Shown in pieces: positions 3,901 through 11,069 of a stretch of DNA of 16,755 nt. A program made the translations under genes and the position numbers. Source of the stretch: Candidatus Heimdallarchaeota archaeon. GTDB taxonomy: Archaea; Asgardarchaeota; Heimdallarchaeia; Heimdallarchaeales; Heimdallarchaeaceae. The stretch lies in the NCBI GenBank assembly GCA_021399395.1, contig JAAFKJ010000074.1:1-16755 (forward strand). Direction: 5' to 3'. Each line of letters starts with the position of its first letter. The first letter of the stretch is position 1. A model generated the notes under the pieces. It worked only from the letters and a program-made list of their open reading frames with translations. It made no database searches and was not told the DNA's origin.

Positions 3901-3960
3901 GAATCAGTATCCTTGAATCAGATATAAAAATTTTTGTTTAATTAAACCAGAACCAGTTCG

Positions 3961-10421: not shown

Positions 10422-10522
10422 CGTATTATTTGTGTATTATTGTTTTTTTAAATCTGTATAAAAACTTTTGCCATCGAAAAGACTTTTTCTTGTTTGTACA
10501 ATTACTGAACAATCAAAATGAA

Positions 10523-10529
10523 TATTAAA
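10523..10529 (+). promoter_or_regulatory. Candidate TATA box for the C/D sRNA
   Basis: TATTAAA 21-27 nt upstream of the predicted sRNA 5' end, preceded by a purine-rich BRE-like tract. Confidence 0.45.
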
Positions 10530-10549: not shown

Positions 10550-10619
10550 GAGAGTTTATGATGATCATGCACTACTTTGAACATTAGTAAGGCAATAAAA
10601 ACGGGGATCTGAGACTCTC
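10550..10619 (+). ncRNA. Box C/D 2'-O-methylation guide sRNA
   Basis: Box C ATGATGA (10558-10564), 12-nt guide, D' TTGA (10577-10580), degenerate C', second guide, box D CTGA (10609-10612). A 7-bp terminal stem GAGAGTT/GACTCTC with a 3-nt bulge gives canonical K-turn geometry. The D' guide is complementary to the conserved SSU rRNA GGUGCAUGG segment. Confidence 0.85.
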
Positions 10620-10625
10620 CCAATA

Positions 10626-11069
10626 TTATCCTTTAAGTAAGTTTACTTTTATTGGTATCCCTGTTTCAACGCTCTGAGTAATTATACAATAATCTTTGAA
10701 TATTTCTTCGCATCTCTGAAACTTACCATCCTTATCATCAATTACAGGTTCTAAATCCACCTCCATCTCCGAGATTCTCCAGAAACCTTTTTCATTTCTC
10801 TCTCGCTTGAATTTTACCGTGGTTTCTAATTCTAATAGATCAACTTGTTTCTTTGTTGAGCAAAAAATAAGAGAAGCTGAAAGACAGTTCCCTACTGCCG
10901 CAGCAAGTAACATTGATGCCGTAGGTCCTTTGCCTTCTCCACCAGGAAGAGAAGTTGGTTCATCTGTTAGGATATTTGGTATTATTTCAGACCCAAAATC
11001 CACTTCAAATTTGTAATTATCCAATCTTTTCATTTTTATTGTATACTCAGATTCATTATTTTCCGACAT
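10626..11069 (-). CDS. OsmC/Ohr family protein
   Basis: DEP...GGEGKGPTA..LL.AAVGNCL and YCIITQSV: both family cysteines present. Confidence 0.9.
   Translation of the reverse strand: MSENNESEYTIKMKRLDNYKFEVDFGSEIIPNILTDEPTSLPGGEGKGPTASMLLAAAVGNCLSASLIFCSTKKQVDLLELETTVKFKRERNEKGFWRISEMEVDLEPVIDDKDGKFQRCEEIFKDYCIITQSVETGIPIKVNLLKG

Follow-up and report, generated by a model that had tools for sequence, protein, structure and literature searches.

A candidate box C/D guide RNA gene of Heimdallarchaeia with a predicted target in helix 34 of 16S ribosomal RNA

Box C/D guide RNAs are common to archaea and eukaryotes, although single guide families have hardly ever been followed from one group to the other. 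In yeast, the small nucleolar RNA (snoRNA) snR40 guides formation of Gm1271 through its D' guide, in which A26 precedes C27, the nucleotide opposite the target (PMC4344503). Gm1271 belongs to helix 34 of the ribosomal RNA (rRNA), on the decoding centre's A-site side; it is equivalent to human Gm1328 and Arabidopsis Gm1272 (PMC2794176, Table 1) and to Dictyostelium Gm1266 (PMC8817022). Human Gm1328 needs SNORD32A together with SNORD51 (bioRxiv 10.1101/2024.11.18.622494). Hoeppner and Poole (2012) placed the site served by AtsnoR21, U32 and snR40 in the last common ancestor of eukaryotes (LECA), and gave an archaeal counterpart for one LECA family only, sR12/snR70, plus a few weak earlier cases (PMC3511168). 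The present analysis concerns a stretch of 16,755 nucleotides of a Candidatus Heimdallarchaeota archaeon (contig JAAFKJ010000074.1; hereafter the window). Positions 10550–10619 of its plus strand are very probably an independently transcribed gene of about 70 nt for a Heimdallarchaeial box C/D guide small RNA (sRNA), predicted to direct methylation of a G in helix 34 of 16S rRNA. The window is one contig (C165) of a metagenome-assembled genome (MAG; G000, the host) of 2.8 Mb in 201 contigs, with 34% G+C and 81.8% completeness.

This reading is carried by anatomy, complementarity to rRNA of the same genome, conservation, covariation within the stem, covariation of the guide with its target, and the genes for the three core proteins. 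The element is built as archaeal box C/D sRNAs are, with boxes C and D near its ends, a terminal stem with a kink-turn (K-turn) and a D' guide whose N+5 nucleotide forms a Watson–Crick pair (Table 1). An earlier note, made from the letters alone, had drawn a string of boxes, stem and K-turn at these positions; the string is present exactly and withstood a reading segment by segment, and the identity proposed with it, a box C/D sRNA, agrees with the anatomy and with the pattern of conservation in relatives. From the sequence, the K-turn consists of the 7-bp stem, a 3-nt bulge (U-A-U) and then G.A, A.G, U.U and G-C pairs between boxes C and D. C10572 stands fifth upstream of the D'-like TTGA. 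The internal boxes of the window (D' UUGA; AGGCAAU at the C' position) have canonical equivalents in the ortholog of genus g11 (CTGA and ATGATTG) and good ones in those of g10 and g7. The C' box is a putative assignment, made from position and from the canonical g11 ortholog.

Searches of the host genome with the small-subunit and large-subunit (LSU) rRNA models, RF01959 and RF02540, returned no rRNA. This does not signify absence, because a motif search and BLAST recovered the host rRNA as contig-end fragments only (C9:1–534, C21:26435–26901 and C6:1–46). Contig C9 opens with the 3'-terminal ~530 nt of the 16S gene, which share 95.6% identity with the complete 16S of G009, a member of the same genus. 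Its helix 34 segment reads GGUAGUGCAUGG, and its positions 8–19 read GGTAGTGCATGG, a 12-mer common to all seven same-genus 16S genes examined. Full-length targets were supplied by relatives, the 16S by G009 and the 23S by G036, the latter with 98% identity to the pieces from the host. Between the guide core CAUGCACUAC and the host 16S there are 10 Watson–Crick pairs and one G.U pair at either end, with no internal wobble; the pairing is identical with C9:8–19 and with positions 988–999 of the G009 16S (a 10/10 Watson–Crick core and two terminal G.U pairs). For the core CATGCACTAC, the helix 34 site is the sole perfect match in 16S and 23S. C10572 pairs with the G directly before TGCATGG, and when the G009 16S is aligned with an annotated E. 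coli rrs, this G takes E. coli position 1051 and the C of TGCATGG, 3 nt 3' of it, position 1054, just where the earlier note had put the target. That note had further expected pairing with G-U wobbles to GGTGGTGCATGG. Helix 34 was right and the internal wobble was not, because the host GGTAGTGCATGG has A where G had been assumed, and the fit is for that reason better than had been supposed.

Taken alone, a single-sequence guide match of this kind is only moderately significant, the chance of a perfect complement for one 10-mer in about 5.9 kb of rRNA being p ~0.0056. A crude genome-wide scan returned 35 C/D-like candidates against 7 in a reversed-sequence control, and two candidates with a perfect 10-nt rRNA match against none. 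The element stands beyond chance because it is conserved and covaries in relatives.

By BLAST, the region was recovered within the genus of the host (g1), and in remoter members of the genus the similarity contracts to the sRNA itself. A covariance model (R1), built from an alignment of 13 distinct copies (A2), found matches in 24 of the 30 other genomes of the family (f1) and in none of 52 genomes from other families of the class. A pattern anchored on box C gave 30 matches in 83 class genomes against 3 in the reversed control and added genus g10, so that model and pattern combined place the sRNA in 25 of the 30 other family genomes. Two further families each have a member. In G046, from another family of the same order, the stem is different, box C reads ATGAAGA and the D' box CTGA; in G070, from a third family, apparently the same antisense element occupies the D-guide position and is cut by a contig end, and no 16S was found in that genome. 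By family, the distribution is patchy (0/22 in f5, 0/12 in f7 and 1/12 in f3).

Some matches were discarded. One R1 match (G007:C93, E 0.0016) was spurious, a coding-like sequence with no box D, and four of the six C-anchored matches within the class outside f1 (G023, G043, G047 and G048) were not sRNA-like. Over 400 Asgard genomes, a D'-anchored pattern matched in 32 genomes against 22 reversed-control matches, and the C-anchored pattern matched in 56, with 32 matches outside the class against 17 in the control. Outside the class, 10 of 12 D'-anchored matches were inspected (all but G378 and G379) and none had a C box, and 20 of 32 C-anchored matches were inspected and none had a box D and stem, several resembling coding sequence. 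In these 317 further Asgard genomes nothing convincing was found with the two patterns, which are strict and would miss variant boxes.

In the 23 distinct orthologs, box D, the GA of box C and the core of the guide persist, and the loop and the D guide diverge. The core is invariant in 13/13 copies of A2 and in 22 of the 23 orthologs; the sole change, T to C in L100, matches the 16S of its own genome. TGATG of box C and CTGA of box D are both invariant in A2, the box C variants of other orthologs (ATGAAGA, ATGACGA, ATGATGT and AGGATTG) retain GA, and box D becomes ATGA in the two g12 genomes. The D' box reads TTGA, TTAA or TCGC in g1, CTGA in g11 and g7, ATGA in g10, and TAGA or TTGA in g12. 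At the C' position stand AGGCAAT, ATGCAAT or ATGCGAT in g1, and in g11 the canonical ATGATTG. The ortholog of g11 follows the canonical layout throughout (C, 12 nt, CTGA, 9 nt, ATGATTG, 12 nt, CTGA), and those of g10 and g7 are near it.

The terminal stem occurs in six types among the 23 orthologs, all of which pair: GAGAGTT/GACTCTC, GAGAGTC/GACTCTC, GGTAC/GTACC, GAGATAG/CTATTTC, ATGGGTT/AACCCAT and TCGGGGC/GCCCCGA. On an alignment fitted to the model (A3), 98.1% of cells are paired and six of the seven pairs show compensatory changes; none of 500 shuffles reached the observed pairing, and sliding the partner left 25–57% paired. The guide also follows its target. Twelve genomes having both molecules combine 16S GGTAGTG with guide CACTAC (G000, G001, G004, G005, G009 and G014 of g1; G037 and G038 of g9; G039 of g10; G040 of g11; G041 and G042 of g12), and G046 combines 16S GGTGGTG with guide CACCAC, a change that adjoins the methylation position and runs in the direction expected of a guide.

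The genes for the proteins of such a particle are present in the host genome. Fibrillarin (PF01269, 308.9 bits) and Nop5 (PF01798, 229.4 bits) are adjacent on contig C150, and there are two L7Ae-family genes (PF01248, 91.5 and 62.6 bits). The TATA-like upstream box of the earlier note was located as well, and the motif CAAAA..ATATTA is conserved in the g1 and g9 orthologs while adjacent bases vary; other genera have different A/T-rich boxes at equal distance. Alone, ATATTA is weak evidence in a genome of 34% G+C. A promoter made of this box and a transcription factor B recognition element (BRE) would be expected to fire near the first stem base.

Synteny, which had been suggested as a check along with covariation, was found in part of the family. 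The sRNA lies upstream of a homolog of the 336-aa open reading frame (ORF) in the g1, g9 and g10 loci. In g12 loci this ORF is absent and the osmC homolog lies ~1.2 kb off, and the g7 locus has neither neighbour. The sRNA persists at loci without these neighbours and therefore behaves as a separate gene, neither leader nor trailer of another. Read on the minus strand, the segment of the D guide, downstream of the osmC stop, gives GTTTTTATT, and positions 10597–10612 read ATCCCCGTTTTTATT, a T-run ~15–30 nt past the osmC stop codon. This T-run within the sRNA gene could terminate osmC transcription, in which case the segment may serve a double use; a terminator role of this kind may account for the A-richness of the D-guide segment.

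Table 1. Features of the sRNA gene and its surroundings (positions in the window)
Feature	Position	Strand	Remarks
Flanking ORF, 336 aa	9411–10421	-	No Pfam family; divergent from the sRNA
Putative archaeal promoter	10514–10527	+	BRE-like CAAAAT at 10514–10519, TATA-like ATATTA at 10522–10527; 23–28 nt upstream of first stem base
5' arm of terminal stem, GAGAGTT	10550–10556	+	Pairs with 10613–10619; present in minimum free energy fold
Spacer, T	10557	+	Read from sequence
Box C, ATGATGA	10558–10564	+	Matches RUGAUGA
D' guide, TCATGCACTACT, 12 nt	10565–10576	+	Core 10566–10575 complementary to 16S helix 34; N+5 nucleotide C10572
D'-like box, TTGA	10577–10580	+	3/4 of CUGA
Interval between TTGA and D guide, 16 nt	10581–10596	+	
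C'-like element, AGGCAAT (putative)	10590–10596	+	12 nt upstream of box D; poor match to UGAUGA
D guide, AAAAACGGGGAT, orphan (probable)	10597–10608	+	
Box D, CTGA	10609–10612	+	
3' arm of terminal stem, GACTCTC	10613–10619	+	Pairs with 10550–10556
Flanking OsmC-like protein	10626–11069	-	Pfam PF02566, E 4.8e-14; convergent with the sRNA

In the mechanism proposed from these sequence features, the RNA would be transcribed from the TATA-like box, and its terminal stem would join boxes C and D into a K-turn bound by L7Ae, on which Nop5 and fibrillarin would assemble. The 12 nt that separate box C from the D'-like box would then pair with GGUAGUGCAUGG in helix 34 and place fibrillarin on the G opposite C10572 (E. 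coli 1051), on the A-site side of the decoding centre, where it would add a 2'-O-methyl group.

Several observations weigh against the reading as a methylation guide. In vitro, archaeal small ribonucleoproteins (sRNPs) generally require symmetric assembly on C/D and C'/D' for efficient methylation. The D' box is degenerate in genus g1 (UUGA, UUAA, UCGC) and the C' box there is unrecognisable, so that methylation directed by the D' guide may be of low efficiency. The second guide (D) is probably an orphan that lacks a conserved target. Its best match in 16S and 23S lies at ~E. coli 1378–1389 in 16S, with one A/C mismatch at guide position 8, a 9/10 match for which the chance in 5.9 kb is ~0.17; it had no match among 30 tRNAs and is not conserved across subclades. 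No copy of the sRNA was found in 5 of the 24 other g1 genomes, all of them MAGs of 76–90% completeness. Alignment A3 was fitted to the structure of the model and includes a weak row (L083:704–768, E 0.021), the guide–target covariation amounts to one evolutionary switch, and the 16S evidence from the host itself is the first 20 bases of contig C9, with which the seven same-genus 16S genes agree. Finally, at gathering thresholds Rfam had no match in the whole window. In a permissive search, 14 of the 15 matches on the element were to CD-box families on the plus strand, most of them spanning the whole element, in favour of this strand; the scores were about half of the gathering scores or less, and the highest were those of RF00136 (24.2 against 50 bits) and RF01286 (24.2 against 47 bits).

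Yeast Gm1271 (snR40) and human Gm1328 (SNORD32A) had been named in the earlier note as the eukaryotic equivalents of the predicted site, and this link agrees with five sources (PMC4344503, PMC2794176, PMC8817022, PMC3511168 and bioRxiv 10.1101/2024.11.18.622494) and with the consensus guides of two Rfam families in the same register. RF00533 (Drosophila Me18S-Gm1358; 23.7 against 50 bits) has the consensus CCAUGCACCACU followed by CUGA, and RF00300 (plant snoZ221_snoR21b; 18.8 against 44 bits) has UCAUGCACCACU followed by CUGA. The two share the same core, the one-nucleotide spacing to the box and the position of the guide in the 5' half, and they carry C where the Heimdall guide has U, as would be expected if 18S has G where the host 16S has A. 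RF00300 was linked to AtsnoR21 by name, and the equivalence of the sites rests on the Rfam consensus guides together with published tables. A26-C27 of snR40 corresponds to A10571-C10572 here.

Whether this likeness reflects common descent is another matter. A true ortholog of the LECA lineage U32/snR40/snoR21, which takes in clan CL00054 and its relatives, as opposed to an independent invention, is unlikely, and convergence is the default explanation for the shared site. The target nucleotide, the register and the D' guide position are those of yeast snR40 (PMC4344503) and of the plant and fly consensus sequences, and the site itself stands in the LECA row AtsnoR21/U32/SnR40 (PMC3511168). With the patterns used, the sRNA was detected among 400 Asgard genomes only in class Heimdallarchaeia, which some phylogenies place nearest to eukaryotes (PMC10307638), and its degenerate C'/D' boxes recall the eukaryotic state (PMC7994747, citing Yang et al. 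2020). However, a universally conserved target dictates the antisense of any guide, and nothing aligns beyond guide and boxes. The families of U32 (RF00133) and snR40 (RF01201), with accessions as given in PMC3511168, were absent even at E<=10; it was these models that the earlier note had named for the search. The sRNA is also patchy within its class, as the counts for f5, f7 and f3 show, convergence could not be excluded even for the best earlier case, sR12/snR70 (PMC3511168), and it is disputed where eukaryotes belong with respect to Heimdallarchaeia (PMC12222021). The element is thus predicted to work like the U32 and snR40 snoRNAs and, judged by sequence, cannot be filed in their families. 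The suggestion of a 'counterpart', in the sense of the same predicted site and mechanism, holds; that of an 'ancestor' is neither supported nor excluded, because the conserved target would force the same antisense on any guide.

The main functional rival is an RNA that does not methylate at all and pairs with nascent 16S at helix 34, either as a chaperone of folding or assembly or as a placeholder, the C'/D' boxes of g1 being too degenerate for fibrillarin to be positioned. In spite of these boxes the guide core is invariant, so the pairing itself is selected with or without methylation, and conserved archaeal guide–target duplexes that are thought to be unmethylated do exist (PMC6009581). Even so, a role confined to chaperoning is improbable: the N+5 pair is a Watson–Crick C-G in every ortholog, the spacing is fixed (box C, 1 nt, the 10-nt core, 1 nt, the D' position), in the orthologs of g11, g10 and g7 both D' and C' boxes are good and the register is unchanged, and the same site is methylated in eukaryotes. 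It is hardly credible that the C/D appearance is incidental and the segment a minus-strand cis element, serving either osmC as terminator or stability hairpin or the 336-aa ORF as leader, for although it lies between two minus-strand genes, reads on that strand as a hairpin arm followed by GTTTTTATT right past the osmC stop, and is syntenic with the ORF in g1, g9 and g10, it recurs in g7 without either neighbour and in g12 without the ORF and ~1.2 kb from the osmC homolog, its 14 CD-box matches in Rfam fall on the plus strand, and a terminator model predicts neither the invariant box C core and box D nor a 16S-antisense 10-mer that covaries with 16S.

A second box C/D sRNA was observed outside the window, at G000 contig C73:7026–7102 on the plus strand (L166:1027–1103), and is the only other host candidate with a perfect 10-nt rRNA match. 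Its layout comprises the stem GCGCGGAT/ATCTGCGC, box C GTGATGT, the D' core GGTTTTACCG, TGGA, an internal hairpin, a C'-like TATGAAA, the D guide ATAACGGCACCA and box D CTGA. The D' core forms 10/10 pairs with 16S, and its target by the N+5 rule would be U531 (E. coli numbering) in helix 18, part of the 530 loop. This sRNA was found in 23 of the 24 other genomes of the genus and in one of the two g9 genomes, with both guides invariant and with covariation of the stem and the internal hairpin. A similar hairpin between D' and C' of the helix 34 sRNA could be drawn in some orthologs, but the pairings were inconsistent and it was dropped. If yeast G577 is the equivalent of E. coli G530, the target of the C73 sRNA would be yeast Um578, or human Um627, again a site conserved among eukaryotes (PMC2794176). 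Um578 and Gm1271 have been grouped as two 'A-region' methylations (PMC2794176). It is rather doubtful that the two sRNAs are surviving archaeal orthologs of LECA snoRNAs, so that Um578 and Gm1271 would have been inherited, with their guides, from a Heimdallarchaeia-like ancestor. If that were true, the weak C'/D' boxes and single working guide would represent an intermediate between the symmetric archaeal and the asymmetric eukaryotic snoRNP.

Other observations concern further candidates and the rRNA of these organisms. A second R1 match in G042 (L083:704–768, plus strand; 18.6 bits, E 0.021), ~750 nt from the g12 ortholog, may be a further C/D sRNA or noise. Two C/D-like candidates of the host, L167 (C49:381–431, plus strand) and L168 (C102:5430–5479, minus strand), have an 8-bp terminal stem each, and their D guides match the G036 23S at positions 3912 and 958, with 9.5/10 and 9/10, respectively. 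Within the 5' strand of helix 45, immediately ahead of GGGGAACCTGCGG, the host 16S contains an insertion of 34 nt (C9:475–508; L122:475–508). Insertions of 31–33 nt with different hairpin-forming sequences occur at the same place in G004, G014 and G005, and none in G009 or G001; the host insertion may be either a mini-intron or an expansion segment of small size. The 23S genes of the genus (4428 nt in G036, L131; 4235 nt in G017, L130; 3577 nt in G009, L128) exceed the 2987-position archaeal LSU model by 600–1400 nt and vary greatly in length among species, which is consistent with the supersized expansion segments of Asgard archaea (bioRxiv 10.1101/2019.12.25.888164).

Box C/D sRNAs are a known kind of RNA, and the interest of this one lies in its LECA-level decoding-centre site, its lineage and its eukaryote-like asymmetry. 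No description of Asgard C/D sRNA genes was found in the literature searched, which comprised titles and abstract openings and in which the slash of 'C/D' may escape phrase matching; a 2021 review on archaeal sRNA conservation leaves Asgard archaea unmentioned. PMC4644070 makes no mention of helix 34, yeast or human, the available part of PMC7005279 deals with N4-acetylcytidine sites only, and that of PMC6009581 holds nothing bearing on the helix 34 site. The gene offers a concrete case, from the lineage that is most often discussed as the sister of eukaryotes, of a predicted rRNA methylation site common to both groups. It also supplies a seed model for sRNA annotation in Asgard MAGs, where Rfam finds nothing, and an example of an archaeal sRNA with asymmetric boxes like those of eukaryotes. 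If the methylation were confirmed, it would bear on the share of the snoRNA repertoire that predates eukaryogenesis.

Among known guides, the highest-scoring Rfam families, SNORD81 (RF00136) and snoR26 (RF01286), have in common with the element the boxes, the stem length and UUGAAC after the first guide, and their guides differ; to judge from the sequences, this resemblance is generic to C/D RNAs. The only archaeal match in Rfam was sR11 (17.6 against 39 bits), with which the element shares the boxes and not the guide. In size, boxes C and D, stem, 12-nt guide, the N+5 rule and the presence of L7Ae, Nop5 and fibrillarin genes, it is nevertheless like the C/D sRNAs of Pyrococcus (sR), Sulfolobus and Pyrobaculum, and like sR12, the counterpart of snR70/SNORD43, it targets a site that eukaryotes methylate too (PMC3511168). 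It departs from most archaeal sRNAs, which have well-conserved C'/D' boxes and two working guides (PMC7994747), neither of which is seen in this genus; a single working guide with weak internal boxes is the usual state in eukaryotes and not in archaea (PMC7994747). Helix 34 is also outside the archaeal 16S hotspots in helices 3, 18 and 27 (PMC7994747, section 5). The Asgard lineage concerned has 34% G+C, and the literature searched yielded no catalogue of its sRNAs.

The eukaryotic guides to helix 34 are snR40 (Gm1271), SNORD32A/U32A (Gm1328), snoR21 (Gm1272), Me18S-Gm1358 and Dictyostelium CD37 (Gm1266). Unlike these, the present RNA is archaeal, ~70 nt long and provided with its own promoter-like box, and it is neither intronic nor polycistronic. 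Its guide has U for their C, matching the A of the host 16S, there is no similarity outside boxes and guide, and its scores are far below the thresholds of the families. The snoRNAs snR40 and U32A have a second functional guide, for LSU rRNA (PMC4344503; 10.1101/2024.11.18.622494), in contrast to the orphan second guide here. What the Heimdallarchaeial RNA has in common with the eukaryotic helix 34 guides is the box C/D layout, the antisense core and its register, the position of the guide in the 5' half, the predicted target and the weak C'/D' boxes.

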